Positions 14,522 through 45,013 of a stretch of 64,000 nt of DNA are shown here, in pieces. Origin of the DNA: an uncultured Myxococcia bacterium (GTDB taxonomy: Bacteria; Myxococcota_A; UBA9042; PHBI01). Location: the NCBI GenBank assembly GCA_942493285.1, contig OW818691.1, forward strand, positions 1,234,321 through 1,298,320, written 5' to 3'. Each line of letters begins with the position of its first letter. Position 1 is the stretch's first letter. The notes below the pieces were generated by a model. It did not search any database, was not told the origin of the DNA, and was given only the letters and a program-made list of their open reading frames with translations. The position numbers and the translations under genes were made by a program.

Positions 14522-14524
14522 GAC

Positions 14525-24252: not shown

Positions 24253-24311
24253 GATGACCTCCTACAAGCGTCTGATCACGAGCAGGTCGACCAGGCAAGA
24301 ATTAGATCAAC

Positions 24312-27984: not shown

Positions 27985-28246
27985 CACGACCTATCGGCAT
28001 GCGACTGGCTCCATCAGATTAGTTCTAAGGAAATGTTGCCGGTCGAGCCTAATGCGGGTGCCGCAAACGCAACCTCCGCTTCCGGCCGAGCGTCGCGATT
28101 TCCGTCAATCGTCTCACAATAATCGCATCATATCGCTGCCGTCAGATGTTCGCCAAGGGCCGCTGTCGCTGCCGTCTTGCTCAGCCGCGGCCGTCGACTA
28201 CCTGAGAACGCTAGCTTCCACGCTCGTGCGCAACGCGAGGCCAGCC

Positions 28247-28338
28247 AACAAGCGTATCGACCTGACACGGCCTAATCGCGATGGGGCCTATCAGCCCCAT
28301 CGCGATTGATCGGCCGCGCAGGTCATACGCAGGACGTT
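28247..28338 (+). repeat. attC-like palindrome, copy 10 (gcgtatcgacctgacacgg / caggtcatacg variant, same subtype as copy 1)
   Basis: Left and right arm changes are mutually compensatory. Confidence 0.9.
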
Positions 28339-28545
28339 GTCCCGCGAAGCCTCTCCACTCTGGCTCGACTCTCCTCGCGCTCGGCTTCGACTGGACTCTC
28401 CTTCCTCCCCTTCCGGCCGGACTGTCTATACTTCGGCCCCGGCTGGACACTCCGTCCTTCCCTCCCGGCTGGATGTTCCGTCCTCCGTCCCGGCCACTAG
28501 TCATGCCACGCCGCCCCGATGGGCGCTTCGAGGTGTAGGCCTCCC

Positions 28546-30111
28546 TCAGGTCCTTGGAATCACTGAGAGGTAGACTGTGACGCCGAGGCCCCGTAGTGAA
28601 CGGATTGCCTCTGCAAAAGCAATCTTTGAAAACAGAGGAAGACGAGGGACCTGGATCGTTCCCTTCTTCTTGCCACCCATCAAAAGCACCACCGAGAAGT
28701 GCTTCGATTTGGCGGCTGACGTCGGCCACTGGGCAACGTAGCGGGCCTCAATGTCAGCGATATAGGAAGCGTCGTTCCTCATGAGCCGCGCAGACACGGT
28801 CGCCTGGGAGAACAGGTGATTCCAAACTGCAGAGGTCTTGCCTGCCTTGACATGAACGAACTCCCACTTGTCAGTCAGTACATCACAGGGCTCGATCTTG
28901 CTCGTCCCGCGATAGAAGAATTTTTGGTCTTGAAGCAGCGATGAGAGCGAGTTTGCGATATTGGCGTTGAACGCGTCTTCCTTCATTCCCATCGGCCAAG
29001 GGGGAAGTTTGCTTGCGCTCGGCCAAGGAGGTAGCGCCGCAATACGGGCATTGAGACCAGTTACGTAGTTTTGGCCTGGAAGCAACCAAATGCCACGAAG
29101 GAACAGGTAGCTCTTACCGCCGTGTTTCACCTCTGCCTCAAGAAACCGTGCGAGTCGAGCTCGCGTCACCTCGCCATTCACGTCTCTGAATGAGAGGTTT
29201 GCCTTCGAGAGGTTCTTGGACGTGAGCCCCTCAGCAGCAATCACGCCCTCAAGCCCCTTTTGAGTCGGCGAGCCGAGTATGAAGTCTTTGGTTGCAACGG
29301 TCAGTGTGAAATCCGTCCCTTCAAGTTCAGCCTCAAGTGGAAGCGCCAGGACTACAAGGCGAGCATTTGTCGTCCCAGTTTGGTGCGCCAGTTGCTTGTG
29401 GAGAGCGTCGTTCAGTTTGGCCCTCAGTTTCGGCTCCCGCACGCGCTGAACGTCGTCGAGAAATTTCAGGTCTGGAGGGAGCGGCCGCCGAAGCAACTTG
29501 AGGGTATGTCGTAGCACCTTCTTGAGGTCTGTAAAGTCGCCCTTCCACGAGCGTATCCGTAGGCAGTCGGTTCCGGCAAAGAAGCTGCCAACGACGGGCG
29601 ACGCTGTCGAAGGTCGACCTGCGAGCGCCGCAAACACGTCAATGCCAAGGTCGAGGCCAAACTCATCGGGCTTGCCGGACGAGGCCCGGAATGTCGAGAC
29701 CTCCAGCGGATTCATGTCTGGCCGAAGGGTCCGCATGTGCATGACCCGCTCCGGGTCAATCAGACGGGATGCGCAATCGAGACCGTACCTCGATTGAAAG
29801 ATGCCTGCGGTGATTGACGACCACCCGTGTCCGAAGGCGACAGCGAAGACCCGCTCCCTCGTCTTTGACTTTGCCGAAATGAGCACTAGGCCCGAGGCGC
29901 TCTGATTCTGTGGGGTGGCGCCGTCCAGCGCTATGCCCAGCGCGCCCAACCACTTCACCCAGGGCGGCGTCTTGAGTGAGTTCTGCTTCAAGAGGACCCG
30001 AACGGCCTTTCCCGGATTAGCTGCCGCAGCTATCTCGTAGTATCCATCCGGGATCGGCACGGCAGCAAGACTGGCAAACTTCCGTCTGAGCAAGAACACG
30101 GTCAAATTCAT
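28546..30111 (-). CDS. Hypothetical 521-aa protein (possibly TIGR04141-like sporadically distributed family)
   Basis: Long ORF, sole occupant of cassette; C-terminal CDVLTDKWEFVHVKAGK resembles that family; weak assignment. Confidence 0.45.
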   Translation of the reverse strand: MNLTVFLLRRKFASLAAVPIPDGYYEIAAAANPGKAVRVLLKQNSLKTPPWVKWLGALGIALDGATPQNQSASGLVLISAKSKTRERVFAVAFGHGWSSITAGIFQSRYGLDCASRLIDPERVMHMRTLRPDMNPLEVSTFRASSGKPDEFGLDLGIDVFAALAGRPSTASPVVGSFFAGTDCLRIRSWKGDFTDLKKVLRHTLKLLRRPLPPDLKFLDDVQRVREPKLRAKLNDALHKQLAHQTGTTNARLVVLALPLEAELEGTDFTLTVATKDFILGSPTQKGLEGVIAAEGLTSKNLSKANLSFRDVNGEVTRARLARFLEAEVKHGGKSYLFLRGIWLLPGQNYVTGLNARIAALPPWPSASKLPPWPMGMKEDAFNANIANSLSSLLQDQKFFYRGTSKIEPCDVLTDKWEFVHVKAGKTSAVWNHLFSQATVSARLMRNDASYIADIEARYVAQWPTSAAKSKHFSVVLLMGGKKKGTIQVPRLPLFSKIAFAEAIRSLRGLGVTVYLSVIPRT

Positions 30112-30628
30112 TTCCCGCCCCCTCGTTGAGACGTCGTTCTATCACACTCACGGCCCACGCGCCAGCGTCGCCCCGAGCCTACAGAGCCTCACCGAGATGA
30201 AAGCGAAGGAAGGCCGCTTTTCGGCACGACTTCTGCGATGCTTTCGTGTCACCGGCTCTTCAGAGTCTGCGCCCAATACAGTGTGGGAGAATGTCGCAAC
30301 TGCTCAGCCGAAAGCCGGTCACACCCCCGGACTCACTCCACGGGTCACACCCCCGGACTCACTCCAATCGCGTCACACGCGCCGAGTCACTCCAGTATCG
30401 GGCGGCGCCCAGCCCTATCAGCCACACGCGGGGCTCAGGCAGCTCCTTGCGGGGCTCAGGCAGCTCATTGCGCGTGCGGATAGCGGCTTGCGGAACTCCG
30501 GTGGTTCGTTGCGGGGCTCAGCTCGCCTGGTCATGATTGCGGTCGGCGAGCACCCGCCATTGCCACTCGACCAGTCGCTCCGTCTCTTCCTCGACGCGCA
30601 AATCCGCTCCAACGCGGCTTCGCGGGAC

Positions 30629-30720
30629 AACAAGCGCATCGAACTGACGCGGCCTAATCGCGATGGGGCCTATCAGCCCCATCGCGATTGATCGGCCGCG
30701 CAGCTCATGCGCAGGACGTT
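30629..30720 (+). repeat. attC-like palindrome, copy 11
   Basis: Full-consensus copy. Confidence 0.9.
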
Positions 30721-31399
30721 GGCTGGCCCCAAACGCCAAAGCTGGACGTAGTTCATCGACTGTCGCCCATTCACCGCTCCGCACAGACTCTGTTGGATTG
30801 CCCGCAACCGATCTCTTGCTCTGGGCAACCGAGCCTTCGTCTCCCGAAGCCAGCCCGACGCCCATCGCTCCATGTCTCCATGTCGCCATAGTCTCCCTCG
30901 GCCTCGCTTCGGCTGCCCCTCGACCTCAGCCGATTCAGAGGTCCTCTTCATGCCCTTGGCCCCCATCCACTGCATCGTGCCGCCCCGGTCGCTTCTGCAT
31001 CGTTCACTCACCATACTTGCCTAACGCATCGTGGCACCCCAAGGTCGGGGTCCGGTAGCGTTTGGGGAGAAAATGTTGACTACGTGTGGAGAGAAACCAG
31101 ACCCATCTTCTATAGGTGTGTGGAGGCCGACGTGTCGATGAGTAGCTCCGCACTCCCAAAAACTTCTCAGCTGGCGCTGGCGACTGCCGATTGGCCCACC
31201 ATCAATCGTCGCCTCTATGCTCACGCTTTGCAGGTTGCCGAAAACTTCAAGTGGGCTGGTCAACGATATCGTCATCTGGCGAAGGGCAAGACTCTTGAGG
31301 ATGTGGTCTACGGTGCCGTCGAGGCAGTCCTAGCAGGCTGCTGAAATATGGGGTCGATTGGACCTCCCCTCCGGCCCACTTACGTCCATTGTGGACGCT

Positions 31400-32600
31400 C
31401 AGTACTCCGCTTGGAGGCGGGGGCGCCCCCTCCAGAGTTCGGCAAGTCGTGCTTGTGGCTTCAGTCTCTCATGCGGCGGCGGCGAGTCGGTTGATGTTGT
31501 TGATTTTGACCAGGTTGAAGGCGGCACCGACGAGCTTGGCGAACCATCCGATTCGTTCGAGCCCTCGATATCGAGCCCGCTTCATGCGACCTGGTTGCTT
31601 CATCCAACCGAAGACCGCTTCTATCTCGCGCCGCTTGATCAAGCTGATGGCATAGCCGGGAAACCGCGTCGTCCTGGAGTCGATGTTCGACTTGCGGCGG
31701 CCTGGCTGCTCGTTTCTCGCGACATGCGGCGTGACGTTGCGGTCGCGCAGCTGGTCAACGAAGTCTTTGGTGTCATAGGCTTTGTCAGCCCCAAGCGTGA
31801 TGCGAGACGTCCCCGCAAGGTTCTCATCGATCATGGCGATGGCCGCATCGCGCTCGATGGTGCCCGTGACGATGTCAGCGCGGGTGTCGACGATCAGTCC
31901 GTTGCGGTTCTCCATCAGCGCATTCACGGCATAGGAGAGTTCGGCTCCAGACCCGGCGCTCTTGCGAGCCAGTCGAGAATCGGGGTCCGTCGTTGACGCA
32001 TGGGTGTCATTCGAGCGCTTCTCGCCCTTGAAGTCTGACCAACCGTTCGAGTCACCAGGGTCTGAGTCCTTGGGCTTGAAGCTCTTGTGGGACGCCATCG
32101 CAGTGATGATGGTGCCGTCCACCGAGAAGTGTTCATTGCTCATCAAGCCAGCGGTCTCGGCCTGCGCCACGATGGACTTGAGGAACGCATTGGCGACATC
32201 GTGCTCGATGAGTCGCTCCCGGTTCTTCGAGAATGTGGATGCATCGAAAGCGGGGCCCGTGAGGTCCATGTCTACGAACCAACGGAACAGCATGTTGTAC
32301 TCGAGCTGCTCGCAGATTTGGCGCTCGCTCCGGACCGAGAAGAGCACCATCAGGAGCAGCGTCTTGAGCTGCCGTTCGGGCGGGATCGACGGCCGACCCA
32401 CGCTGCTATACATACTCTCGAACGTCCCATCGAGCTCCGCCAGAGCCGCATCAGCCAGCTTCTTGATGCCTCTGAGCGGATGGCTCGGTGGCACGAGTGA
32501 GCCGGGCGAGACGAGCATGAGCATGGAGGGCTGACTGGTTTTGGAGCCGCGCATACGCGCGTTAGATCATAGGGTTAGGAGAAAGTCGATCCGGCTTCTG
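31400..32600 (-). mobile_element. IS5-family insertion sequence (approximate bounds)
   Basis: Contains IS5-family DDE transposase ORF; ends not mapped. Confidence 0.45.
31469..32554 (-). CDS. IS5-family DDE transposase
   Basis: 361 aa; N-terminal InsH-like region (PERQLKTLLLMVLFSVRSERQ) and DDE region (ADKAYD..., FGWMKQ...R). Confidence 0.6.
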   Translation of the reverse strand: MRGSKTSQPSMLMLVSPGSLVPPSHPLRGIKKLADAALAELDGTFESMYSSVGRPSIPPERQLKTLLLMVLFSVRSERQICEQLEYNMLFRWFVDMDLTGPAFDASTFSKNRERLIEHDVANAFLKSIVAQAETAGLMSNEHFSVDGTIITAMASHKSFKPKDSDPGDSNGWSDFKGEKRSNDTHASTTDPDSRLARKSAGSGAELSYAVNALMENRNGLIVDTRADIVTGTIERDAAIAMIDENLAGTSRITLGADKAYDTKDFVDQLRDRNVTPHVARNEQPGRRKSNIDSRTTRFPGYAISLIKRREIEAVFGWMKQPGRMKRARYRGLERIGWFAKLVGAAFNLVKINNINRLAAAA

Positions 32601-33018
32601 CGCGGCTCGGACTTTTTCAGCAGCCTGCTAGTACAGCCTGACCTCTGGAGCCCAGAACGCGGGAGTCTCGAGCATTTCCTCAAACTTCTCGTCAGGAGCG
32701 ACCTAACGAGAATCGCTCTGAGCGGCGCTCGGAAGCGCGAGAGCTTCGGAGACGTCGACGACTTCGAGTCAAACTTGCTCGACCCCGAGAGCACTATAAT
32801 CAGGGCCGAAGAGGAGGACGCATATCGAGTTCAGATACGAGCGATGCAGCTAGCCTTCTCCGCCGACCCGATTGTCAGTCGAATCCTCGCAGGATGTCTC
32901 CAAGGAGGATCCATGAAGCCGAGGTTTCTGGCAGAATCGCTGAACTTGGGATTGCCCCAGGTCAATGCCGCCCTCAAGCGTCTCCGGCGCTGGGCTTGGA
33001 CCCCAAGAGAGTCAAGCC

Positions 33019-33408
33019 ATGAGTAAGATTTCGGTCCAAGAGCAAATTGAGTCGATTGTCGCGCTTCTCAATGAGGAAGACTTGCCTGCGGAGGATCAAG
33101 AACGTTTGATCCAGGGCGCAGACAAGGCAGTCTTGGTGCGACTCAACGCACTCACCGCCCGCTTCGTCGCTGAGAATTCGATAGCTCGGACCACCGCGGC
33201 GCAACAACGCAAGGAAGCTCTCAGGGAGCGGCTGCAGATGGTCCAGAAGTCGAATCTGTCCCGAGACGAACTGATCCTCCGCATCCAAGGCAAACGCGAG
33301 CTTCTTGGAAGCGCAGCCCCAGCATTCTTTCGGAGCTTCCTCGACGTCACCGACGAGGATCTGGCGAGCCATCTCGCGGACCTGGAGTTCCTGGACGGTG
33401 AGCGATGA
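33019..33408 (+). CDS. Hypothetical coiled-coil protein, partner of ImmA-like peptidase
   Basis: Stop overlaps start of downstream ImmA-like gene (ATGA at 33405). Confidence 0.35.
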   Translation: MSKISVQEQIESIVALLNEEDLPAEDQERLIQGADKAVLVRLNALTARFVAENSIARTTAAQQRKEALRERLQMVQKSNLSRDELILRIQGKRELLGSAAPAFFRSFLDVTDEDLASHLADLEFLDGER

Positions 33409-34253
33409 CTCGTCGATCGGCGTGTCGCGCGGAGTGGGCTGCAATCGAACTCGTGAGGCAGTGGGGAATCACCAGTGCCCCGGAGCTACACTATCTGGAT
33501 GACCTCGCTTTCATGGCAGGCGCACTCGTCGTCGACTCAATTCTAGAAGGCGCACAAGCGCGTCTCGTGTGTGGAGCCGGTCGGGCAATCATCAGCGTTT
33601 CGACGTCAATGACGTCAGAGAGACGTCGTTTCGCTATCGGGCACGAGCTTGGTCACCTGAGGATGCACTCAACCAAACACCGGCACGCGTTGTGTAGTCA
33701 GGAAGACTTGGTGATGAGGCCCGCAGCCAACGAGCGGACCGCATTCGCAGAGCAGCAGGCCAATCTTTTCTCGTCAGCGATTCTCATGCCGGAGTTTCTC
33801 TTCGCGCCGCGCCTAGGAGGCGACTATCCCACGATCGCCACGCTCGAGTCGCTTGCTGCGGAGTTTGCGACTTCACTGACAGCGACCGCGTGTCGGTATG
33901 TTCGACTGACAACTCACTGTTGCGCGGTGATCTATTCGGTCGAGGGCATAGTCCATTGGGCGATGCCCAGTCAGAGCTTCCTCGACTCTCCTTTCAGGAT
34001 ACTCGGCGGTCCCGTCGATCGGTGCTCTCTTGCCGGCCTGCTGGGCGAGTTCAATGGCCCGGCTGTAGCTACCGAGCTACGCTCCCCAGCGAGCGCGTGG
34101 CTAGCTGATGGACCATACGACCGGGCCGCCTCACTTCGGGAGCTGTGTTGGCCAATGCCAAACTACCGCGCGACTCTGTCTATCATTCAGCTTGACTCTG
34201 ACATTCTCGATTTCGGCTTCAGTGCTCATAGAGATGGAGCTTACTTGTCGTAA
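33405..34253 (+). CDS. ImmA/IrrE-family zinc metallopeptidase
   Basis: HEXXH motif IGHELGHLRMH and downstream E (FAEQQANLFSSAILMP) typical of DUF955/ImmA. Confidence 0.55.
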   Translation: MTRRSACRAEWAAIELVRQWGITSAPELHYLDDLAFMAGALVVDSILEGAQARLVCGAGRAIISVSTSMTSERRRFAIGHELGHLRMHSTKHRHALCSQEDLVMRPAANERTAFAEQQANLFSSAILMPEFLFAPRLGGDYPTIATLESLAAEFATSLTATACRYVRLTTHCCAVIYSVEGIVHWAMPSQSFLDSPFRILGGPVDRCSLAGLLGEFNGPAVATELRSPASAWLADGPYDRAASLRELCWPMPNYRATLSIIQLDSDILDFGFSAHRDGAYLS

Positions 34254-34967
34254 CGTTCCGAAGTGGGGGATTGAACGTTGCCCCTCCTCCTTTTGAGCCG
34301 CCGAAGTAGGCACCTCCATCAGGCAGAGTTGCTCGGAACTCGACTTCCGCGTTCGACTCTGTCGTCGGCCCCCCGCGACGCGAGGCCAGCTAACGAGAGT
34401 CGGGGTCTCAAGGTCAGTAATAGACCGAGATTCCAAGCGCTCCCGAAGGCGTTCGAGGATTCACGGATGCCTTCCGGCCCGCCTGTTCGACCTTCGAGGA
34501 CACTTGCGCTCGTCACGCGCTCAGCCAAAGCCTGGCGAGGATTCTTGGACGGCTTCCGAGTGCGCCGAAAGCCGGCGGCTCAGAGCTCGGAAGACTGCTG
34601 TCCTGACGAGAGCGTCCCACGGAATCCTCGCACACGGTCTCTAGCGACGGGAGCACATCCCGTAGTCCTCGGACATCAACCCCGATTCTCCGGGCGCCTC
34701 CACCAAAGTTCGCGCCGCCTGTGTCCCGTATCCCGGCAGCGCCTTTGTGCACCTCCGAGCCTCGACGAGCTTCTATATCCTCAGGTCAGCGGTCTCGCGG
34801 GCCAAACCCCCATGGCAACGTCAACTGGTTCGTGGCCCAGCCCACGAACCAGAAGCAGAACTCTCCCACCTGCAAGAATGACGAGCTCGAGCTCGTCCTT
34901 CACCCTGACCCGAGCTTTCGTGCTGCCGTTCGGCGCGTGACGGGACGGCTATTTCACGAGGCCAGCC

Positions 34968-35059
34968 AACAAGCGCATCGAACTGACGCGGCCTAATCGC
35001 GATGGGGCCTATCAGCCCCATCGCGATTGATCGGCCGCGCAGCTCATGCGCAGGACGTT
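34968..35059 (+). repeat. attC-like palindrome, copy 12
   Basis: Full-consensus copy. Confidence 0.9.
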
Positions 35060-35458
35060 GTCCCGCACGAGGCCTGCTCGTTCCCTCGCCTTCCTCACCG
35101 CCTTCCTCCGAGAGCGCCCCGCATCCCTCAAGGCCGCTGCTCCGCCTGCAGGCCCCTGTCGTCTCCTTGCCCTCCTCGCCTGACTCGCTTCTGGAGGGAC
35201 GTGCATCCCTCAAGCCCCCGATGCCGGTTCGGTTCCTGGCCCTACGCCTCCCGTTGCTCACTGGGGCGCATCCCCCTCGCAGGGTTGCTCCTCGAGCTCG
35301 CGGTTGAGGTCGCCAGAGTGTCCCAATCGGAGAGACACCTGGCACACTTGGGACAGTTGCGGGACACTTTCGCGAGAAATAGCTGCGTGTTTTCAAGGGG
35401 CTGAGGTTGGCCCGGCTCTTGCTCATGGGTTCGCGTTTCCCAACACGAGAACCCGGTT

Positions 35459-36637
35459 ATGCACACGGAACCTACACGGCTCATCTCTCCATCCGTTCAG
35501 GGGGTGATTCGGCAGTTCGCGCCCAGCTACATCGCGAAGAATGGCAAGGGGTTACCCCTGTCGCATCGCAAGGCGCTTCGCCTCCTCTCTCAGTGTCGAA
35601 CGGTCGCGCTTGGCGGTCACGTGGTCGAGTGCGGCAACTGCAAGGTGCAGGACTACACCTACCACTCGTGCGGCCACCGTTCTTGCCCTCGCTGCATGTC
35701 GGAGGACTGTGATGCGTGGCTTGGCGCTCGGCGGAGTGAGCTGTTGCCGGTTCCTTACTTCCACGTGGTGTACACGGTGCCGGAGGGGCTGAACGGCGTG
35801 GTGCGGAGTCATCAAGGGGAGCTGTATCCAGTGCTGATGCAGGCGGCGGGTAACTCGCTTCTGGCAGTTGCGGCCGCGCCTGACAACCTGGGGGGTAGGG
35901 TAGGGGTGATGTCGACGCTGCACACGTCGTCGAGTGCGCTGGCGTACCACCTTCACGTGCACTGCCTTGTCCCCGCGGGGTCGGTCGATGCAGAGGGCGA
36001 GTGGCATGACGCGAAGGACTCGCGCCTGGGGTCAGAGAGCGCGCTTGGCAAGGCTTTCCGGGACAAGGTCGGTTCGATGATGAAGGCCGCAGTCCCGGAC
36101 GTTGCGCTGCCGGACGGGGTGTTCGACCTCGCGTGGAAGGTGCATCTCGAGGTACCGCAGCACGGGGCGGAGACGGTGCTTCGGTATCTGGGTCGCTCGG
36201 TTCACCGCGGCCCGATGAGTGACCACCGCATCGTGTCTGTGACCGAGACCCATGTCGTGTTCAAGTATCGGGACAAGGACCGCACGAAGGCCAAGACGAT
36301 GTGCGTGGACGGCCACGAGTTCCTTCGTCGCTTCCTGCAGCATGTTTGGCCCGACCGGGTGCACAAGGTGCGCTACGCTGGCTTGTGGAGTCGGAAGTGT
36401 CGGGCGGAGCTTCGTGCACTCAGGCAGCGACTCCTGGCAGCCATGCAAGTCGAGCCACCTCCTGCGGTCGGGGAACCGAAACCGCTGCTACCCCCTGAGC
36501 CCGTCCTACCTCCGTGGCGTCGCTGCCCTCACTGCCAGGCGGAGCGGTTCATCGTGGCTCGCTTCAAGGCTGGAACCACCCCACCACCCCTGGTGGACCC
36601 GCTGCAGGGCACACTACCCGGGATAGACCCTCCCTGA
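35459..36637 (+). CDS. IS91-family (HUH Y2 rolling-circle) transposase
   Basis: N-terminal Zn-binding domain (ALGGHVVECGNCKVQDYTYHSCGHRSCPRCM), VPYFHVVYTVP, HUH motif HLHVHCLV, downstream tyrosines (LRYLGRSVH...). Confidence 0.8.
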   Translation: MHTEPTRLISPSVQGVIRQFAPSYIAKNGKGLPLSHRKALRLLSQCRTVALGGHVVECGNCKVQDYTYHSCGHRSCPRCMSEDCDAWLGARRSELLPVPYFHVVYTVPEGLNGVVRSHQGELYPVLMQAAGNSLLAVAAAPDNLGGRVGVMSTLHTSSSALAYHLHVHCLVPAGSVDAEGEWHDAKDSRLGSESALGKAFRDKVGSMMKAAVPDVALPDGVFDLAWKVHLEVPQHGAETVLRYLGRSVHRGPMSDHRIVSVTETHVVFKYRDKDRTKAKTMCVDGHEFLRRFLQHVWPDRVHKVRYAGLWSRKCRAELRALRQRLLAAMQVEPPPAVGEPKPLLPPEPVLPPWRRCPHCQAERFIVARFKAGTTPPPLVDPLQGTLPGIDPP

Positions 36638-37059
36638 TGGCGAAGCGACGGCCCTTCCGAGTATCCCGTATCCCGTCACGACCTCACGCACGAACGTGTG
36701 GTCGTCTCGCAGAGATCTGCCCTGTGAACGCCAGCGCAAGCCACTCCACGACCGATTTCGAGCGTCGGGAGCGTTCCACGCGCCACGAGTCCTCCAGTCT
36801 GCCAATCAGACTGCTCTACGGACCCGAAACCGAGGCCTCTTTGACCCGAAAAGGAGGCGATTCGGCTCCCCTCAGAGGGGCCTGCGAGGGGGCAGAACAT
36901 ATAAAATGCAGTAGGTCGCCTCGACCGCCACTGGCAAGGGTCTGCGAGCATTCGCCGTCGTCTCGAGGACAGGCCTTTCTTGGCCACCGCACTCACCGCA
37001 GGACCCCGACGCCCAATCAGCTGGAGTCGAGGCGCTAGCGACTTCAGACGTGCGGGGAC

Positions 37060-37151
37060 AACAAGCGCATCGAACTGACGCGGCCTAATCGCGATGGGGC
37101 CTATCAGCCCCATCGCGATTGATCGGCCGCGCAGCTCATGCGCAGGACGTT
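37060..37151 (+). repeat. attC-like palindrome, copy 13
   Basis: Full-consensus copy. Confidence 0.9.
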
Positions 37152-37435
37152 GGGCGGCGTACCCACTCCCACCCACTGTCCCACCTCCACCTCCGCTCCG
37201 TCGGCGCTTCACTCTACCTCTTCCTACTAACACATCATCTCTCGCTGCTTCACTCCACCACCGCGCTCAAACGCCCATACACCTGGGCTCGCAACAGCTC
37301 GCCCACCATCACCACAGCCGGCAACCCCGCTCCCCGCTTGGTGCGCGTAACCTGGCTTGCCAAGAACTCAAGGCTATGTTCAAATTACCACACCTCGCAC
37401 TCGTTTCCTTGGTACCTCGATCGGAGTAGTAGTAA

Positions 37436-38386
37436 GTGTCAGAAACCTCCAACATCGCTGCAATGGCAAACAAGCTCAGCAATGAGATCTTTGGAGTCTT
37501 CGGTTGGACGTCCGTTGGGCCAACGGACATCAATTGGGACTGTACCCAGCCGACTCACAACTGCCAGACTCACCCATCCGATGTTGTTTTCTGGTACGAC
37601 GATCCGTACCAAGGAGACCGTGTCTACGTCAACTTTGACCTGAAGAGTTACGCGGCGAAAACCTTGCAAAAGAGCAAAGTCACCAAGGCTCTCCACAGCC
37701 TAGCAAACGCTGTCGAATGCGCCAACAGCGGAGACTGCTGGCGTGCAACTTACGTCGACGCCGATGTCAATTGGCATTGCGACGGCGCGCTCTTCGTCTA
37801 CAACCACGACCACGGATTCGACAAGTCGTTCCGCGCCCTCTTCGACGAGGCCTCCGCAACAGTCAAAGTCCCAAAGGGCAGACGCCTCTGTGTATTCGGG
37901 CCACCCGAGATTGAGTACCTGTTCAACGTCGCCACCGACATCTTGACACTGAAGGGCAGGGGTGAACTCCCCAGCGGCAAGGAATCCGAGTTCTGGTACC
38001 CTGACCTCGTCACCGCACGACGCCACACACAGCAGAAATCCGCAGCCAGCATAGAGATGTTGACGGGGCCTTGGATCACTCTTCGAGCATCGGCCTCCGT
38101 CCCGAAATACTATCTCTGGTATAGGAGCGGAGGTGCCAGCACGATCGACCACTTCAAGTATCTCCTCGACTTCGTGTTCCGCTACCAAGTTCTTGCGTCA
38201 GATGACACGAGTGTCATCGTGCGCCTTGTTGGCGCTGACTCCAATGCTGTCTCAAATTTCTCCATCGCCAAGGACCAGTACTCACGCATGATGCATCTTG
38301 ACCCAAGCCGTTTGCGAAACGTAACCGCCTCGAATGTGGATGCAGCCCGGCGTGTTTTTGACCAGACCGAAATCGGAATGGAGTAG
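37436..38386 (+). CDS. Hypothetical protein, gene 1 of a three-gene operon (possible PD-(D/E)xK-like nuclease fold)
   Basis: 316 aa; D...D...(D/E)xK-like arrangement (WYDDPYQGDRVYVNFDLKSY), weak; GTG/ATG start ambiguity (37436 or 37463). Confidence 0.45.
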   Translation: MSETSNIAAMANKLSNEIFGVFGWTSVGPTDINWDCTQPTHNCQTHPSDVVFWYDDPYQGDRVYVNFDLKSYAAKTLQKSKVTKALHSLANAVECANSGDCWRATYVDADVNWHCDGALFVYNHDHGFDKSFRALFDEASATVKVPKGRRLCVFGPPEIEYLFNVATDILTLKGRGELPSGKESEFWYPDLVTARRHTQQKSAASIEMLTGPWITLRASASVPKYYLWYRSGGASTIDHFKYLLDFVFRYQVLASDDTSVIVRLVGADSNAVSNFSIAKDQYSRMMHLDPSRLRNVTASNVDAARRVFDQTEIGME

Positions 38387-38388
38387 TC

Positions 38389-39567
38389 ATGGCAGGCAGA
38401 ACCCGCAGTGCTCTGTATTTCGCGGATGACAAAGACGTGCTCGACGTTCTCACTCTCGCCAAGAAGAAGATCACCCCGGCGCGACTTGTAGAACTCGGAA
38501 AGCGACGCGGTCTCCTTCTCTCTTCCGATGACTCCCGGGAGACCCTCGCCGAGCGGATCGCGAAGTTGCCATTTGACTGGACGGAGCTCGAACACCTTTT
38601 GGGTTTCGTCGACTCTGCGAGCAGGGCTGAAAAATTGTCGGTTCACTCTTTCCTCGCAACGGTGGCCCCGGCTGACCTCAAAGACGCCGTCGAAGCTACT
38701 AAGGTTGCACGCCAAGACCTTCGCGGAGAGGTGTTCTCGATCTCGACCGTTGGAAACACCACTACCGTCTCGGTGAAATACACGGAATTGGACCCCAATC
38801 GTACTCGCCTCGTGCAGCGGACCGAGCGCGAGTTCAGTATGGAAATCCTCCAGACCTCCGAGGGATTTAAGGTTCGCCATCAGGCGCAAGAGCGCGCCGA
38901 TGACGTCAGGAACGAGATTCTCAACAAACTCATCGAGCTCACGAAGCCTCCCGCCCCGCCAGAGGCCCGCCCAATCGAGCTTTCGTCGATCCGTAGTCCG
39001 CGACACCGCACGAATTTCTTTGTCCAGCTCATGAAGCTCCCAGGCTTCGAGCTTGAAGACGTCGTTGTCGTAAACGGTGCCATATTGGACGACGACGCTG
39101 ACAATGACGACAATGACGAGGCATTTGACCCCGGACTCACCAACCACGTTCGCCAAGTAGCCCTCCGTGGGGGCAAGCTACTCGACTCCAAGGAGTACGC
39201 AGAGCTCTTTAAGGAGGAGACTGGCCGCTTCATCAGCTCAGTCATCTGGCGTGCGAATGAGCAGAAGGGAGATAGGACCCGCGTCGAGATCGAGGCCGGA
39301 TTCGGCAATGCCGTGAATGCTACCGATTTCGCCTTCTCTATTCGGAAGGCTTGGGTCCGCAATTCCAGTGGAGACATCAAGAAGACCAAGGTTCAGAACA
39401 CCGAGCGCCTGGTTCTCGAGAAGAGACTTGCGCCGATCCTTGAGAAGGCTGCTGATGACGCCGTCGCAAATGTGCTCAGGGATGCCTCTGCCGACACAGA
39501 AGATGTCGTTGAAGCGCTCGCCGCTGCATCCGAAGGTGTCTCCTCCTCCGACGGTGGTTCCAAATGA
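38389..39567 (+). CDS. Hypothetical protein, gene 2 of the three-gene operon
   Basis: 392 aa; start 3 bp after upstream stop; acidic low-complexity stretch DDDADNDDNDE; no recognised motif. Confidence 0.45.
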   Translation: MAGRTRSALYFADDKDVLDVLTLAKKKITPARLVELGKRRGLLLSSDDSRETLAERIAKLPFDWTELEHLLGFVDSASRAEKLSVHSFLATVAPADLKDAVEATKVARQDLRGEVFSISTVGNTTTVSVKYTELDPNRTRLVQRTEREFSMEILQTSEGFKVRHQAQERADDVRNEILNKLIELTKPPAPPEARPIELSSIRSPRHRTNFFVQLMKLPGFELEDVVVVNGAILDDDADNDDNDEAFDPGLTNHVRQVALRGGKLLDSKEYAELFKEETGRFISSVIWRANEQKGDRTRVEIEAGFGNAVNATDFAFSIRKAWVRNSSGDIKKTKVQNTERLVLEKRLAPILEKAADDAVANVLRDASADTEDVVEALAAASEGVSSSDGGSK

Positions 39568-40241
39568 AAGCAGCTTGGTGCTGTTGGTACTCTGCGGCTC
39601 TGACCGCGGTCGACTTCAGCTCGCTTCCTGCCGCGCTTAGGAGCTGGAGTTCTCGGGATGTCGAAGGGCGTGTTCGGTTGGCTAACGCACGACGCGATAG
39701 TCTGTCAGGCAGCTATTCTCTGCGACAGGACTGGACCGAACGAGTTGCCGGGGCCGATGGACTATTCGAGGACGCAGAGATTCCCAGAGTTCGAATTCTC
39801 TCTGTCCAGTTCCGCCTTAGCACCACGTACCCACAAGTCGAGCTATGGGGCGCTCGCTCAGCAGGCCGTCTTCTGCTCAAGGAACTCGCGAGCCTTCTAC
39901 CTTCGGCCTGCCCGGCTCCGATACCTCTACAGCCGATTGACTGGTTTGGAGCCATTGAGGCCGGCCATGAGGTTCGAACCGTCGGAATGGTGTCAGCACA
40001 GATTCCACTATCATCAAGCGTCGTAATGAGGGCGCACTTCGACGGGACGACCGACATTCGTCCGCTCCTGTCCAAGAAGTTCCCCGCCCTTCTAAAGTCA
40101 CCACGGAAGCTTGTCGTCCAGATCCAGAAGAGCACGGGCTTTTCCCAGGTGGAACTCGGAACTAACGCCAGCGCTCGGGTGCCGCCGAATGACGAAGAGT
40201 CGCGTGCCCTGCTCCGGTCTGCAATTGCCACCCTCGTCTAA
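39564..40241 (+). CDS. Hypothetical protein, gene 3 of the three-gene operon
   Basis: 225 aa; ATGA start/stop overlap with gene 2. Confidence 0.4.
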   Translation: MKAAWCCWYSAALTAVDFSSLPAALRSWSSRDVEGRVRLANARRDSLSGSYSLRQDWTERVAGADGLFEDAEIPRVRILSVQFRLSTTYPQVELWGARSAGRLLLKELASLLPSACPAPIPLQPIDWFGAIEAGHEVRTVGMVSAQIPLSSSVVMRAHFDGTTDIRPLLSKKFPALLKSPRKLVVQIQKSTGFSQVELGTNASARVPPNDEESRALLRSAIATLV

Positions 40242-40298
40242 CGTCAGTCCCAACTCGACTTCTTGCGCTCAAGCAACGGACCTACCGCAGCGCCGCCC

Positions 40299-40390
40299 AA
40301 CAAGCGCATCGAACTGACGCGGCCTAATCGCGATGGGGCCTATCAGCCCCATCGCGATTGATCGGCCGCGCAGCTCATGCGCAGGACGTT
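40299..40390 (+). repeat. attC-like palindrome, copy 14
   Basis: Full-consensus copy. Confidence 0.9.
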
Positions 40391-40447
40391 GTCCCGCGAA
40401 GCCTGCTCCGTTCTCAGCTGGATTGACTGCATAGCCTCTTCCCCTCT

Positions 40448-40700
40448 CAGCTGGACTCACCATCATCCATCCTCGGGGTGGACTCACCATCATCCGTCCT
40501 CGGGGTGGACTCACCATCATCTGTCCTCGGGGTGCACTCACCATCATCCGTCCTCGGGCTCGAGTCACCATCAGCCGTCCTCGGGTTGGACTCACCATCA
40601 TCCATCCTCGGGCTCGACTCGCCGTCGTTCATTCTCGAGGTCGACTCACCACCATTCACCATCGGTCTTCGGACTGGGCTCGCCGTCGTTCATTCTCGGA
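40448..40700. repeat. 27-bp tandem repeat (GGTGGACTCACCATCATCCGTCCTCGG, ~10 units)
   Basis: Period 27 counted; starts ~55 bp after attC. Confidence 0.85.
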
Positions 40701-40759
40701 TGTGGCAATTCGGCTCCGTTGCGCACTCGCCGAACAGTCGGCACGCAGCGGACGCGGAA

Positions 40760-41620
40760 TCGATGGCGTGCTAATTTGCGATGAGATGGCTTGGTGTTAG
40801 CACGCATGTTTCCCCGCCGGACTCGTTCGATCGCAACCTCGGATGTGGACTTGAGGATCGACAATCCAAGAGCCTCACTTTCGGCGAGAAGACCTTCAGC
40901 GTGAAGCGCACGTCAAGTCGCGCGGGCCACTTTGCGATGAGAAGGCTTGGTGTTAGCACGTGTACCTCGATTCAGGGCTCTGCGTCGCGCACTTCCGTCG
41001 TGCACTCGGCGAACCACTCGGGTGCATGTTGAATCGGGGGCGTGCTAATTTACGATGAGAAGACTTGGTGTTAGCACGCGTGCCTCCTCGCCGAACTCCT
41101 TTGGTCTCATCCTCCCGGTACCTGCTGACGTCGGCTTGCCGCCCCTCGGTCGCTCGGCTCCGATGTGCACTCGCTGAACAGTTGGCGCGCGGTCCTCGTA
41201 GAATCGGGGGCGTGCTAATTTACGATGAGAAGACTTGGTGTTAGCACGCCTGCTTCCCCGCCGAACTCGTGCCGTCTCATCCTCCCCGTGCCCGCCGATG
41301 TCAGCTTGCCGACCCTCGGTCGCCCGGCTCCGATGCGCACTCGCTGAACAGTTGGCGCCCGGTCCTCGTAGAATCGGGGGCGTGCTAATTTACGATGAGA
41401 AGACTTGGTGTTAGCACGCCTGCTTTCCCGCCGAACTCGTGCGGTCTCATCCTCCCGGTGCCCGCCGAAGTCGGCTTGCCGCCCCTCGGTCGCTCGGCTC
41501 CGATGCGCACTCGCCGAACAGTTGAAGCGCGGTGCGTGTTGAATCGGGCGCGCGCTAATTTACGATGAGAAGACTTGGTGTTAGCTCGCGTGCTTTCTCG
41601 CCGAACTCGTACGGTAGCAG
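40760..41620. repeat. ~170-bp tandem repeat (5-6 units), each with a conserved 39-bp hairpin GCGTGCTAA-N21-TTAGCACGC
   Basis: Hairpin copies at ~40766, 40925, 41041, 41211, 41381, 41551; last four exactly 170 bp apart; no credible ORF. Confidence 0.85.
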
Positions 41621-41640
41621 AGCCACCTTCCATCCCCGCG

Positions 41641-41850
41641 TTGGACTGGCCATCGCTCATTCTCGGGCAGCCTCACGAGCGCGAGCTCTGGCTCGGACTC
41701 ACTGTCGTCCATTCTCAGGTGGCGCTCACCATCGTTGATTCTCGGGGCTGGGTTGAACGCACCACCTCCATTCTCCGAGGTGGACTCGCCATCGTTCAAT
41801 CTCGAGGTGGACTCGCCATCGTTCAATCTCGAGGTGGACTCGCCATGCGT
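41641..41850. repeat. 27-bp tandem repeat (GGTGGACTCGCCATCGTTCAATCTCGA family)
   Basis: Same family as 40448-40700. Confidence 0.75.
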
Positions 41851-42157
41851 GGCTGTCGTGTGCGGAATGTCGTTTGTACAGATTTGCCCCGCCGAGACCC
41901 GTGGCTCACTCCTCGTGGAGTCTTAGAGCCACCGGAGGGTAGGGCGGCTGCCAGGCGTCGACTACTTCTCCCCGCCACGACTCCCGCTCCCACCACCCCG
42001 CCGCACTCCGCCTCGCCTGTATCCGACCGCACCTCGCCAGGCTCCACCTGCGGTCTGCCAGGAACCGCTCCTCCTCGACTCAAGACCCAAATCTCGCAAT
42101 TACCTGAAGCACTTCTCTCCCTTCATCGCGCCAACTCCCGCGTGGCTTCGCGGGGAC

Positions 42158-42249
42158 AACAAGCGCATCGAACTGACGCGGCCTAATCGCGATGGGGCCT
42201 ATCAGCCCCATCGCGATTGATCGGCCGCGCAGCTCATGCGCAGGACGTT
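42158..42249 (+). repeat. attC-like palindrome, copy 15
   Basis: Full-consensus copy. Confidence 0.9.
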
Positions 42250-42357
42250 GTCCGGCGTGCGCACTCAGAACTGGTTGCACTTCAGCGACGCCCCGCGCCT
42301 GGTATCTCCCCACCCCTTCCTTCATCGGCGCTAACCGTCTTCTCGGGAGACGCTCCC

Positions 42358-42712
42358 CTCTGAGGTTGATGGCGTTCTGGAGGTCGCGCAGCGCGACGTT
42401 GACGCCTCGGCTCTGTCGCCGTCGCTCCTTTCTGCGCTTGTCGGCATCTCTCCCTCTGGGGTTGAATGTCGCTCTGGAGGTCCTGCCCGACGTTGACGCC
42501 TCGGTCACCGACGCTCTCGTCCGGCGCTCCTGTCGGCGGACGTTCGTCTCTGGGCTGGATGTCGCTCTTGAGGTCGCGGCGCGTCGTTGTGGTCCTCCTG
42601 GGAGCCTTCCCGACCGCTTGGCGCCTTGCCCTCAGCCCCTTCTGTCCCATCCGTGCGACACTTTGGGACGGTTTGGGACGGTTTGGGACAGCTATGGGAC
42701 AGTTTGGGGTTG
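42358..42712. repeat. ~95-bp degenerate direct repeats (x2.5) followed by 10-bp GGGACRGTTT decamer repeats (x5)
   Basis: Visible repeated blocks TCTGRGGTTGAWTGTCGCTCTKGAGGTC...GACGTTGACGCCTCGG; decamers at 42655-42712; upstream of the diverged IS91-family transposase. Confidence 0.6.
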
Positions 42713-42884
42713 GCTTCACGTAGGCGTGATGCGGTCTTCATGGCTGGCATGGTTTTTGGCAAGAGCTCGGGTCCTCCAACTCAGGGACCTGAACATCTTG
42801 CCGCAATCGAGCCCTTCGACCTCAGCCATCTCCCTGTCTCTTGCTGACGTTCTTCGGCGGTTTGGTGCGAGGTACCGTTCGCGC

Positions 42885-43994
42885 ATGCGTGGGAGTTTGC
42901 CAGAGGAGCATCGGACTGCGATGCGGATGATCGAGAAGTGCCGCACGCCTGCTCTTGGCGGTCATGTTCTGGAGTGCGCGACGTGTGAGGGTGAGCAGGG
43001 GTATGCGTTCAACTCGTGCAATCATCGCTCGTGTCCGAAGTGCATGAGGGAGGCGTCAGCGAAATGGGTTGCAGCTCGGCACGAGGAAGTCCTCCCAGTG
43101 CCGTACTTCCATGTGGTTTTCACGGTGCCGCAGGAGCTGAACGCCATCGTTCGTGACGAGCAGCGGAAGCTCTATCCATTGTTGATGAAGGCGGCCGGGC
43201 AGGCCCTGGTCTCCATCGGGAAGTTGCCTGAGAACCTGGGTGCGACGCCGGCGGTGATGACGTCGCTGCACACGTCTTCGAATACACTCGTGTATCACCT
43301 CCATGTTCACTGTCTGGTTTCGGCTGGCGGTTTGGACGGGGAGGGGAATTGGAAGGCCTCGAAGTCCGAGACACTTGCCCCAACGCGCGCCCTTGGTGCC
43401 AGGTTCCGGTCTCGGGTACTTTCGCTGATGAAGTCAGCGGTGAAGGACCTCAGTGTCCCCGAGGCCGTGCTCAAGAAGGACTGGCAAGTCTACCTCGAGC
43501 TTCCCCACCACGGCACTCCGGCGTTGCTTGAGTACCTCAGTCGTCCGCTTCACTGCGGGCCGTTGTCGGAGTATCGCCTCGAGTCCATGACGGACGAGGA
43601 TGTGGTGTTCCGGTACCAGAAGAGTGGCGACCGGACCTGGCGCACGATGCGGTTGTCTGGACACGAGTTCCTTCGTCGGTTTCTGCAACACGTATGGCCC
43701 AGCGGTGTGCACCGGGTTCACTACTGTGGTCTGTGGCGTCGGAGGTGTCGTGAACAGCTTCGAGCTCTGCGCGCGCTCCTTCTCGGGTCAGCCCCCCCGG
43801 CACCGGCCGCCGCCCCAGTAGCAGCGCGTGCTGACGGGGATGTGCCCTCCGCTGACCTCGAGGTACCCCACTGGCTCAAGTGCCCGCACTGCGCCGGGAC
43901 GCGAGTCGTCGTCGCGCACTTCCGCGCAGGAGCGAAGCTGCCTCCGCTGACGCCACGCGGGTGGGGGGTAATCTCGCCGGAGCCACCGTCGTAG
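42885..43994 (+). CDS. IS91-family transposase, diverged second type (N-terminus may start earlier at a non-ATG codon)
   Basis: ALGGHVLECATCEGEQGYAFNSCNHRSCPKCM, VPYFHVVFTVP, HLHVHCLV; aligns along its length with the 35459-36637 transposase but with different sequence; 600-aa ORF-track call starts inside the attC repeat and is an artefact. Confidence 0.6.
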   Translation: MRGSLPEEHRTAMRMIEKCRTPALGGHVLECATCEGEQGYAFNSCNHRSCPKCMREASAKWVAARHEEVLPVPYFHVVFTVPQELNAIVRDEQRKLYPLLMKAAGQALVSIGKLPENLGATPAVMTSLHTSSNTLVYHLHVHCLVSAGGLDGEGNWKASKSETLAPTRALGARFRSRVLSLMKSAVKDLSVPEAVLKKDWQVYLELPHHGTPALLEYLSRPLHCGPLSEYRLESMTDEDVVFRYQKSGDRTWRTMRLSGHEFLRRFLQHVWPSGVHRVHYCGLWRRRCREQLRALRALLLGSAPPAPAAAPVAARADGDVPSADLEVPHWLKCPHCAGTRVVVAHFRAGAKLPPLTPRGWGVISPEPPS

Positions 43995-44315
43995 TGCAGC
44001 TCACACACCGCTCTGAATCCCACCTCGTCCTCATGGCCTCGCGAGCGGCCGTAAGGGACTGGTCCGTCCGGAGTCGGGTCAGCGCCCCCTCCGAATGCCA
44101 ATTCTTCTCTCTGAAGGCCCGTCAAAGTCGCCTCGAGACCACCCAACTTCCAAGAACCCCCTCGTCGAGGACCGAAAGCCGTCACCGCTCGCTCGCCTTC
44201 AGCCTCCTCCCTGACCACCAGATTCCTATATATCGCATAGGGCCCAGAGGTCCCTCTCGACGGCTTGCAGAGCGGCTCTCACGCCCACCCAAAGCCCATC
44301 CAATGGGCGCCGGAC

Positions 44316-44407
44316 AACAAGCGCATCGAACTGACGCGGCCTAATCGCGATGGGGCCTATCAGCCCCATCGCGATTGATCGGCCGCGCAGCTCATGCGCA
44401 GGACGTT
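44316..44407 (+). repeat. attC-like palindrome, copy 16
   Basis: Full-consensus copy. Confidence 0.9.
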
Positions 44408-44704
44408 GTCGGGCGTGTGCGGCCGGAGCTCGTCGCTATCGAGAGGTCCCAGCGCCACGGATGCAGCCACCCGACTTAGCACTGTTCGTGCCAAACAGCC
44501 GGGCACTCGGATCCGCCTCACCCCCTAACAGAGCCTGCCAACCCGTTGCGCTCTCATCGCTCGGCGTCCCCGACGCTCGCACGATTTTCGCAGCACTGGT
44601 CCAACGTGGCGTCGAGAATGCCAAGGGCGGCAATTGTGCTCCCAGGTTCCGCGTCAGACCGAGTACGAACTCTGTGTGACATCCACCTGAACCACTGGCT
44701 TCAG

Positions 44705-45013
44705 TCAAGTTGGACGACTGAGCCAGTAGCCAGGTCGGCGCCTGCTATGCGCAACCGCGATCACTACAATCCGGTCTCCTCGCGTTTGATACACGAGCAG
44801 ATACGGAAAGGTCGCGAGGGAAATCCTGCGAATCTCGCTTCCGGCGAGGTGCTGTGATGTCCAAAGAGCACCAAGCCGCGGATTGTCGGCAATTCGTCGA
44901 GCGGCGCCCGCCACGGCATCCAGGAATCGAAGTCCAACGCCGGTCCCTCGTTCCTCATACCAGGAGGCAGCAGCGCGCAATTCATCCAGTGCGGCTTGTA
45001 GAAAAGTCAGCAC
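44705..45013 (-). CDS. ParE/RelE-family toxin
   Basis: 102 aa; ...FPYLLVYQTRGDRIVVIAVAHSRR typical ParE C-terminus. Confidence 0.6.
   Translation of the reverse strand: MLTFLQAALDELRAAASWYEERGTGVGLRFLDAVAGAARRIADNPRLGALWTSQHLAGSEIRRISLATFPYLLVYQTRGDRIVVIAVAHSRRRPGYWLSRPT

Follow-up and report, generated by a model that had tools for sequence, protein, structure and literature searches.

IS91-family transposase genes as cargo of integron gene cassettes in a large attC array of an uncultured Myxococcia bacterium

Sedentary chromosomal integrons, such as the Vibrio cholerae superintegron and the Xanthomonas arrays, consist of long co-oriented arrays with near-identical, species-type attC sites. 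In these arrays, the crossover takes place at G|TT, each cassette begins with bases complementary to its own R'' box, some cassettes are duplicated, and toxin, defence-like, and unknown genes abound in the cargo. The stretch of DNA analysed here (64,000 nt, hereafter the window; positions 1,234,321 to 1,298,320 of contig OW818691.1, assembly GCA_942493285.1, from an uncultured Myxococcia bacterium) carries an array that is like these integrons in all of these respects. Unlike them, it contains cassettes whose cargo is a rolling-circle transposase gene of the IS91 family (tnpA) with cis motifs of its own; besides, its cassettes are large (1.8-6.4 kb for the 22 complete ones) and have long non-coding leaders, and neither intI nor attI is present in the window.

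IS91-related HUH enzymes that are physically tied to integrons are known from the ISCR elements that accompany class 1 integrons. ISCR1 is located past the 3' conserved segment, whereas the genes described here lie inside an attC-bearing cassette, and the comparison with ISCR drawn in the original prediction, which had been made from the letters of this DNA, proved weak: the protein scores 25 bits on NF052416 (clade Ia), the sole ISCR model with a match, against a cut-off of 925. The transposase belongs to the same protein family as those of the insertion sequences (ISs) IS91, IS801, and IS1294 (NF033538, above cut-off), and its cassettes contain an oriIS-like box resembling the IS1294 terminus, while the protein identity is only ca. 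24%; unlike the units in the window, these ISs have a terIS, end at oriIS by a GTTC/CTTG target, and are not cassettes. IS1111-attC ISs and group IIC-attC introns are also mobile elements specialised for integron arrays. These elements interrupt attC, whereas the attCs flanking the units in the window are intact and the element itself is a cassette; no intron matches and no Rfam family match were obtained anywhere in the window. In CTX-type elements, single-stranded DNA (ssDNA) is produced by HUH rolling-circle replication, and the folded hairpin is integrated by a Xer recombinase. These phages and other Xer-exploiting elements provide an analogy for the division of labour proposed below, in which an ssDNA hairpin made by an HUH enzyme would be integrated by a Xer/IntI-type recombinase; unlike in the phages, no phage genes occur in the window, the site is attC, and the recombinase would be IntI. 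Our literature searches yielded no description of integron cassettes that carry IS91-family genes; ISCR, clinical contexts, and the grouping of IS91 recombinases with IntI were the only subjects retrieved.

The array extends over nearly the whole window (60.8% G+C) and continues past its left edge.

308..60121, + strand: cassette array with 23 complete co-oriented attC sites of ca. 94 nt and 22 complete cassettes between them
15520..15609: attC with a degenerate R'' (AGGCAAGCGC in place of CAACAAGCGC), whose cassette lacks the R'/R'' pairing described below

The repeat is an imperfect palindrome with ..CAAC/GTTG.. ends, found in one orientation in all 23 complete copies by self-BLAST and repeat search, and its consensus is CAACAAGCGCATCGAACTGACGCGGCC...GGCCGCGCAGCTCATGCGCAGGACG|TTG. 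The architecture is that of a canonical attC, with R'' (..AAC), an imperfect hairpin with bulged bases and inner L''/L' arms, and R' (GTT..). The bottom strand folds into a single long hairpin with single-base stem bulges (-41.6 kcal/mol; z = -5.9, 200 shuffles). Since the crossover at G|TT splits the R' box, the outer part of R' is carried at the 5' end of the cassette. In 21 of the 22 complete cassettes, including all five with tnpA, the first 10-17 nt at the 5' end were the reverse complement of the bases preceding the ..CAAC of the cassette's own attC, and at least eight different cassette-specific pairing sequences were present (e.g. GTTGTCTGGCC, GTTCGCCGGCC, GTTGGCTGGCC, GTTGGGCGGCG, GTTGTCCGGCG, and GTTGTCCCGCGAAGCC). 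The exceptions were the degenerate site at 15520-15609 and the truncated last unit. Such R'/R'' pairing is the defining trace of integron cassettes with a crossover at G|TT.

The transposase genes are located in the following units of the array.

35058..37149, + strand: transposase cassette copy 1, 2,092 bp from the TT of the upstream G|TT to the G of its own attC
35459..36637, + strand: tnpA copy 1, 392 aa, IS91 family, with HVH at 166-168 and the motif YLGRSVHRGP
37059..37152, + strand: attC of copy 1, with the consensus sequence of the array
47579..47669, + strand: diverged attC variant with a different loop, 84% identical, preceding copy 2
47668..49759, + strand: transposase cassette copy 2, 2,092 bp (tnpA 48069-49247; attC 49669-49762)
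51545..53636, + strand: transposase cassette copy 3, 2,092 bp (tnpA 51946-53124; attC 53546-53639)
55658..57749, + strand: transposase cassette copy 4, 2,092 bp (tnpA 56059-57237; attC 57659-57752)
42248..44405, + strand: fifth transposase cassette, lineage 2, 2,158 bp (tnpA 42798-43994; own attC 44312-44408)

The amplification of one unit into four near-identical copies, as originally predicted, is real and far beyond chance according to self-BLAST and alignment. Copies 2 and 4 were 100% identical over 2,092 bp, copy 3 differed by 1 nt, and copy 1 had 53 substitutions but no indels relative to copies 2-4. The predicted unit length of 2,000 bp has to be replaced by 2,092 bp from crossover to crossover, since the earlier figure omitted each unit's own 94-nt repeat. 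The claim that the units are bounded exactly by the palindromic repeat was borne out, the identity between copies ending within about 19 nt around G|TT in both self-BLAST and alignment: the attC upstream of copy 2 (84% identical) shows a difference from the other attCs 16 nt ahead of the crossover, and the right flanks cease to match 4 nt past it. The 5' end of copy 1 (GTTGTCCCGCACG) pairs with CGTGCGGGGACAAC at 37046-37059, and that of the fifth cassette (GTTGTCCGGCG) pairs with its own R'' (CGCCGGACAAC). The copies alternate with three unrelated cassettes (49760-51544, 53637-55657, and 57750-60118), and their differing neighbours indicate that they were moved or duplicated as units. All five units are true integron gene cassettes, and duplication took place at the level of the whole cassette.

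Further copies are present beyond the window. According to a protein cluster look-up, one and the same contig of 9.29 Mb encodes six distinct protein variants of lineage 1 (that of copies 1-4) and three of lineage 2, and the window contains three and one of these, respectively. Because of the variants outside the window, the genome has at least seven copies of lineage 1 and at least three of lineage 2. One of the lineage-2 variants outside the window starts with translated attC sequence.

The framing of two transposase lineages by the same repeat had been taken as a sign of a functional link between transposase and repeat. This framing is common to all 23 units in the window and not to the transposase units alone; the other cassettes carry genes for Fic/DOC, TIR plus a cyclic-nucleotide-binding protein, GmrSD, an AbiEii-like ATPase, IrrE-type peptidases, and DUF6119. 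Since unrelated cassettes such as those with Fic, TIR, and GmrSD are framed identically, the repeat cannot by itself show a link with the transposase, and what speaks for such a link is that the close relatives are all cassettes and form one clade and that the next of kin of this clade are IS91 elements with attC-like ends and an IntI-like tyrosine recombinase, as described below. Between the two alternatives offered earlier, capture and amplification by integron-type recombination fits the anatomy of the locus (canonical attC, R'/R'' pairing in 21 of 22), and an array built by rolling-circle transposition is the less supported one.

Each of the four units holds a single open reading frame (ORF) of 392 aa, and its assignment to the IS91 family was confirmed by matches above cut-off in Pfam (Zn_Tnp_IS91, 7e-26; Y2_Tnp, 3e-41) and NCBIfam (NF033538, 'IS91 family transposase'; 321 and 314 bits for lineages 1 and 2, cut-off 125). 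A diverged fifth transposase in another cassette had also been foreseen correctly, and its product is ca. 50% identical to the other four. In an alignment with the relative P0011, a start at TTG 42798 (398 aa) appeared more likely than the internal ATG 42885 given originally. The HUH motif HVH (166-168) was invariant in the TnpA alignment, and the Zn-finger cysteines were conserved. The second catalytic tyrosine is absent from both lineages in the window, which have Ser in YLGRSVHRGP (lineage 1) and the motif YLSRPLHCGP (lineage 2). The ORFs of copies 1 and 2 differ at 24 synonymous and 6 non-synonymous codons, which indicates purifying selection on an intact gene.

In the original prediction, no IS ends were recognisable in the units. 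IS-like cis sequences are nevertheless present in them, namely a conserved repeat cluster upstream of tnpA and a conserved oriIS-like box.

35318..35369, + strand: repeat cluster 90-140 nt upstream of tnpA copy 1, a candidate protein-binding or regulatory site
36899..36916, + strand: oriIS-like A/T-rich box of copy 1, ATATAAAATGCAGTAGGT, 261 nt after the stop codon and ca. 140 nt before attC
44225..44242: oriIS-like box of the fifth cassette (W2), CCTATATATCGCATAGGG

In the upstream cluster, an inverted GTGTCCCA precedes between three and five GGGAC(A/G)NTT repeats, which are spaced by about one helical turn. In copy 1, the inverted GTGTCCCA (35318) is followed by GGCACACTT (35341), GGGACAGTT (35350), and GGGACACTT (35361), spaced 9-11 nt apart; the fifth cassette has four GGGAC(A/G)NNT repeats at 42665-42704, and an equivalent arrangement is found upstream of the genes of the relatives P0002, P0005, and P0011. 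The sequence GGGACANTT has nine matches in the window (1.3 expected), all inside the five tnpA cassettes. The A/T-rich box is located 215-332 nt after the stop codon of the cassette genes (P0002 and L005, GGATATAATCTCCA; P0005, GTGAAATCTCCAATGG). It resembles the terminal oriIS sequence of IS1294, TTTCAATTTCCTATACGT|GAAC, and the int-tnpA ISs described below have a similar box, ..AAAW(T/C)TCCAAA.., at 7-51 nt, in most cases 10-30 nt, ahead of their right inverted repeat. A position weight matrix (PWM) made from these ISs, which is low in information so that positional conservation is the better argument, had its best match at the oriIS-like box in eight of nine cassettes. The box is proposed as a candidate oriIS core. 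By comparison of the copies, the mobile unit is bounded by the attC crossovers and not by this box or by the small palindrome (35068-35082) that adjoins the start of the copy 1 cassette. No sigma-70-like promoter was found in the transposase cassette. The occurrence of GGAC/GTCC both in the attC end and in IS1294b targets was dismissed as a tetranucleotide coincidence, too short to carry meaning.

The closest homologues outside the source genome were 54-59% identical and nearly all located on metagenome contigs of 1.5-2.5 kb. Every close relative that could be inspected was an attC-bounded single-gene cassette without an adjacent integrase gene, and at least two attC families were represented. 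The following ten relatives and both lineages in the window make up the 12 cassette-borne genes of the clade (MAG, metagenome-assembled genome).

P0005 (L085-L090): attC of the same family as in the window
P0002 (L093): attC of the same family as in the window
P0011 (L091): attC of the same family as in the window
L005 (Lysobacter MAG; L005): attC of the same family as in the window
L094 (L094): attC of the same family as in the window
P0024 (L180): attC of the same family as in the window
P0022 (L181): attC is a variant
P0044 (L001-L004): attC of a different family
L017 (L017): attC of a different family
P0033 (Reyranella MAG; L179): attC of a different family

When both ends of a relative were on the contig, its 5' end paired with its own R'' (e.g. 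GTTGGACAG and CTGTCCAAC in L002). The P0005 cassette had different neighbours on the six contigs examined, and tandem pairs of tnpA cassettes were present in L088 and L179. None of the 12 genes was seen outside an attC array or as a free IS. For attC detection, a constrained DNA fold was used, which recovers every attC in positions 30000-64000 of the window and in L002. A detector demanding 7-bp R''/R' complementarity within the site recovered only 14 of 23 attCs because R' belongs to the following cassette, and it was discarded, as were unconstrained minimum-free-energy pairing of AAC with GTT, which recovered almost none, and a 12-mer inverted-repeat test for cassette ends, which was too strict and missed known positives. 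BLAST for flanking direct repeats gave attCs in L001/L002 only, among the loci then compared. IS21-type elements (IstA/IstB) were inserted beside tnpA cassettes in three metagenome arrays (L085:2170-4549, L001:999-3238, and L091:293-2574). A tyrosine recombinase gene at L002:4767-5609 was considered as the intI of its array; it is on the wrong side and strand, behind an IS21 fragment, and was unused as evidence.

More distant relatives have a different organisation. We examined 80 loci from species-representative genomes (a set that excludes the source genome) and 80 metagenome loci among the matches listed, at 34-51% identity; the metagenome matches listed were mostly distant relatives. With the constrained-fold detector, attC flanks were absent from almost all of these loci. 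In 64 of 82 loci (80 genome and two metagenome loci), a gene for a tyrosine recombinase of 280-313 aa was located immediately upstream on the same strand, and the same was observed at most metagenome loci among the matches listed. In all, about 100 of the more distant relatives are two-gene ISs of this int-tnpA kind, with an IntI-like tyrosine recombinase. Several of them were multi-copy ISs with sharp ends, including a 2,450-bp element present five times in one genome. In the original prediction, homologues with canonical IS91 ends and without the palindrome, together with an IntI gene adjoining the array, were to refute the proposed link. The first half of this is borne out for the distant homologues, which have their own IS ends and no attC; as to the second half, no tyrosine recombinase is encoded within the window.

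The int-tnpA subgroup (e.g. L065-67, L070/71, and L075/76) is like the genes in the window in having a homologous TnpA (33-50% identity) with the same Zn-finger and HUH domains and an A/T-rich ..TCCA.. box ca. 230 nt after the stop codon. Unlike this subgroup, the genes in the window lack an adjoining recombinase and the second catalytic tyrosine, no dispersed copies of them were seen, and they are bounded by full attCs common to unrelated cassettes. The best NCBIfam match of the int-tnpA recombinases was often 'integron integrase' or 'XerA/integron integrase'; on TIGR02249, which has a cut-off of 265 bits, they reached only 165-206, and they lack the insertion specific to IntI. This agrees with a published description of the tyrosine recombinases of IS91 elements as the closest homologues of IntI (bioRxiv 10.1101/542381).

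The ends of the int-tnpA elements had one layout in at least 19 independent elements. At the left end, a small palindrome comes after an initial (G)TTGAAC or (G)TTGGAC. The right end has the complementary box (..GTTCAAC or ..GTCCAAC), then 2-4 nt, an imperfect hairpin (33-65 nt in the eight elements folded), and ca. 8 nt, with GTTRR next in many elements. The integron core consensus is GTTRRRY/RYYYAAC, which GTTGAAC/GTTCAAC fit, and joining of the two ends would give R'', hairpin, and R' with the boundary at the 5' edge of R'. As read from the sequences, the end layout is the same as that of an attC plus its cassette. GTTC/GAAC is also a known cleavage and target tetranucleotide of the IS91 family (PMC13181058), and since the end boxes contain it as well, either the recombinase or TnpA may use them. 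Elements with such attC-like ends include L065:4975-7424, L070, L075/L076, L027, L042, L057, L082, L148, L155, and others, and the reconstructed targets of int-tnpA elements were often ..G|TT(G/A)G. One right end (L169:2783-2880) starts with GTTCAACAAGCGCAT and has 12 nt (CAACAAGCGCAT) in common with the start of the attC in the window, which could be chance.

In a neighbour-joining (NJ) tree of 143 TnpA sequences, the cassette-borne genes formed one clade, in which identity reaches down to 44%. Bootstrapping of the 12 cassette-borne and 38 randomly chosen int-associated genes with IS1294 as an outgroup recovered the former as monophyletic in 100 of 100 NJ replicates and the int-associated set in only 4 of 100. 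This suggests that the cassette lineage arose inside the int-carrying group with loss of the recombinase. The motif around the catalytic tyrosine varies: YL(A/G)RY with two tyrosines is found in the int-associated genes and in three cassette genes with the second attC family, and YL(G/S/A)R(S/P), in which the second tyrosine is gone, in nine genes with the attC type of the window, both lineages of the window included; these nine form a subclade (98/100). From these comparisons, the tnpA genes in the window appear to belong to an undescribed IS91-family lineage found only within integron cassettes. This lineage probably descends from an IS91 subgroup that had its own IntI-like recombinase and attC-like ends, the recombinase gene having been lost.

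We consider, with a probability of roughly three in four, that the five units are integron gene cassettes in a large chromosomal array and that their cargo is an intact IS91-family HUH tnpA with its upstream repeats and oriIS-like box. An integron integrase encoded outside the window would excise and insert the transposase cassettes by site-specific recombination at attC, and the lineage, having lost its own IntI-like recombinase, would now rely on this resident enzyme. TnpA would probably still act on the cis sites of the cassette, for example by nicking or single-stranded copying, and such activity would explain why the genome has at least seven plus three copies, unlike the neighbouring cassettes, and why tandems are found elsewhere.

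Several observations weigh against this reading. No tyrosine recombinase was detected in the window by tblastn with five recombinases, and neither an integrase gene nor attI is present within the 64 kb, the array running past the left edge; taken formally, what the 64 kb contain is an integrase-less cluster of attC sites. We infer the role of an integron integrase from the anatomy of the sites only. Since the enzymes in the window have lost the second tyrosine, classical Y2 rolling-circle chemistry should not be assumed for them. The per-sequence p values of the oriIS-box PWM ranged from 0.007 to 0.87, copy 1 (W1) being the weakest at 0.87. The phylogeny was built by NJ only, with a distant outgroup (24% identity). 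In addition, other large chromosomal integrons likewise contain duplicated cassettes although no transposase is present, and copy number alone is, therefore, no proof of self-promotion.

A stronger form of this reading, which we regard as doubtful, is that the cassette is itself a mobile element whose HUH enzyme makes bottom-strand ssDNA copies that the integron integrase inserts. The hairpin end of an integrase-carrying IS91 derivative would then have become, or always have been, attC, and TnpA might also copy neighbouring cassettes as single strands. Integron recombination acts on the folded bottom strand of attC. The functional intermediate of IS91 is a bottom-strand ssDNA circle (PMC13181058), and the stronger form has a parallel in both processes. 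If it is true, the cassette would be a self-amplifying helper that supplies the integron with single-stranded substrate, the attC-like ends of int-tnpA elements together with recombinases closest to IntI would speak for a shared ancestry of integron recombination and this IS91 subgroup, and a route by which new cassettes gain attC sites would be conceivable. The source of the attC single strand, the multiplication of cassettes, and the origin of cassettes and attC sites are debated questions, and a lineage of rolling-circle, ssDNA-making enzymes that lives only as cassettes, and whose nearest kin carry attC-like ends and the closest homologues of IntI, is a concrete and testable link between the two systems. 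On the conservative reading, the genes represent a new IS91-family lifestyle, cassette-borne, without a recombinase of their own, and with one of the two catalytic tyrosines, and integron arrays can contain selfish-looking cargo in many copies.

That the transposase moves the unit by itself, with the attC hairpin plus GTTG as oriIS and the upstream copy as terIS, seems unlikely. TnpA would nick G|TT, peel off a one-cassette circle of the bottom strand, as in the intermediate of IS91 (PMC13181058), and paste it beside another hairpin plus GTTG, and the product would be identical in appearance to that of the integrase. The ends of IS91-family elements are subterminal palindromes by GTTC, CTTG, or GTCC with a T conserved at position 2 (PMC13181058), and the int-tnpA elements have RYYYAAC, a hairpin, a spacer, and GTTRR at the right end and the complementary (G)TTGAAC at the start of the left end. 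However, ends and R'/R'' logic are no different in the cassettes with unrelated cargo, or in integrons generally, which lack IS91 enzymes, and the conserved oriIS-like box lies ca. 140 nt inside the cassette, away from attC. While the far stronger amplification of the transposase cassette compared with its neighbours and the tandem copies in two other arrays would suit such an activity, a tetranucleotide target should scatter the copies, and all 12 clade genes were seen in arrays. Furthermore, the second tyrosine is lost, and nicking at attC by this enzyme would be a conjecture by analogy.

It is still less probable that an ordinary IS91-type IS landed in a cassette and has since been carried and duplicated as a passenger without any functional tie to the integron. 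ISs are common inside cassette arrays, and the IS-like cis sequences (upstream repeats and oriIS-like box) are set in from both cassette ends, as a passenger would have them. Against this, all 12 members of the clade, down to 44% identity and with at least two attC families, are single-gene cassettes without another ORF or a disrupted-cassette remnant; the clade was monophyletic in all 100 replicates, and none of its members turned up as a free IS. The gene has stayed under purifying selection, and an incidental capture would not be expected to last and diversify so far.

RecA-dependent homologous recombination between near-identical 94-bp attCs, by unequal crossing-over or circle excision and reinsertion with neither integrase nor transposase, is similarly improbable, since, even though the attCs (94-100% identical over 94 nt) are long enough for RecA and unequal crossing-over classically yields tandem duplicates like those in L088 and L179, the copies in the window are interleaved with three different cassettes, unlike after simple unequal crossing-over, copy 2 sits after a divergent attC (84%), and the amplification of the transposase cassette in particular, here and in other arrays, is left unexplained.

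Some other features of the array were recorded. At its right end, the last unit is incomplete.

61993..62007: truncated attC remnant, the last 15 nt of attC with the left half absent

The unit at 60119-62005 has no attC of its own and contains a minus-strand DUF5677 gene. A 29-nt direct repeat, (C/G)ATGCGCAGGACGTTGTCGGGCGTGTGCA, occurs at 60106-60137 and 61993-62024, its second copy overlapping the truncated attC, and ca. 95 nt beyond the remnant resemble the start of the cassette at 44406.

The cassettes in the window are unusually large, and some have several ORFs or minus-strand ORFs. Many contain defence- or toxin-like genes (10853-11773, 15910-17241, 26128-27984, 28546-30111 on the minus strand, 13433-14521 on the minus strand, 33405-34253, and 50138-51280), among them TIR plus cNMP-binding (Pycsar-effector-like), GmrSD, AbiEii/AAA_21 ATPase, DUF6119, IrrE/M78 peptidase with a helix-turn-helix domain, and Fic/DOC.

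Tandem repeats whose period is 22, 26, or 27 nt (in most cases not divisible by three) were found at 2033-2330, 2654-2840, 6367-6615, 12721-12848, 40452-40655, 53743-53963, 54003-54448, and 57794-58447. They often directly follow attC at the 5' end of a cassette, several units have a common CTGGACTC core, and they look like non-coding leader arrays. A 5' leader of ca. 40 nt after the crossover (TTGTCGGGCGTGTGCAGTCAG..CTGGTCGGCTC) is conserved among unrelated cassettes in arrays with the attC family of the window (L086:101-140, L085:4690-4730, L088:192-235, and 44406-44425 and 60119-60137 of the window). The cassette at 40389-42247 contains a tandem repeat of 170 bp (3.4 copies, 90% matches; 41031-41615). 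The final ca. 640 nt of two different cassettes (18708-19349 and 34417-35060) are 84% identical and thus represent paralogous 3' parts.

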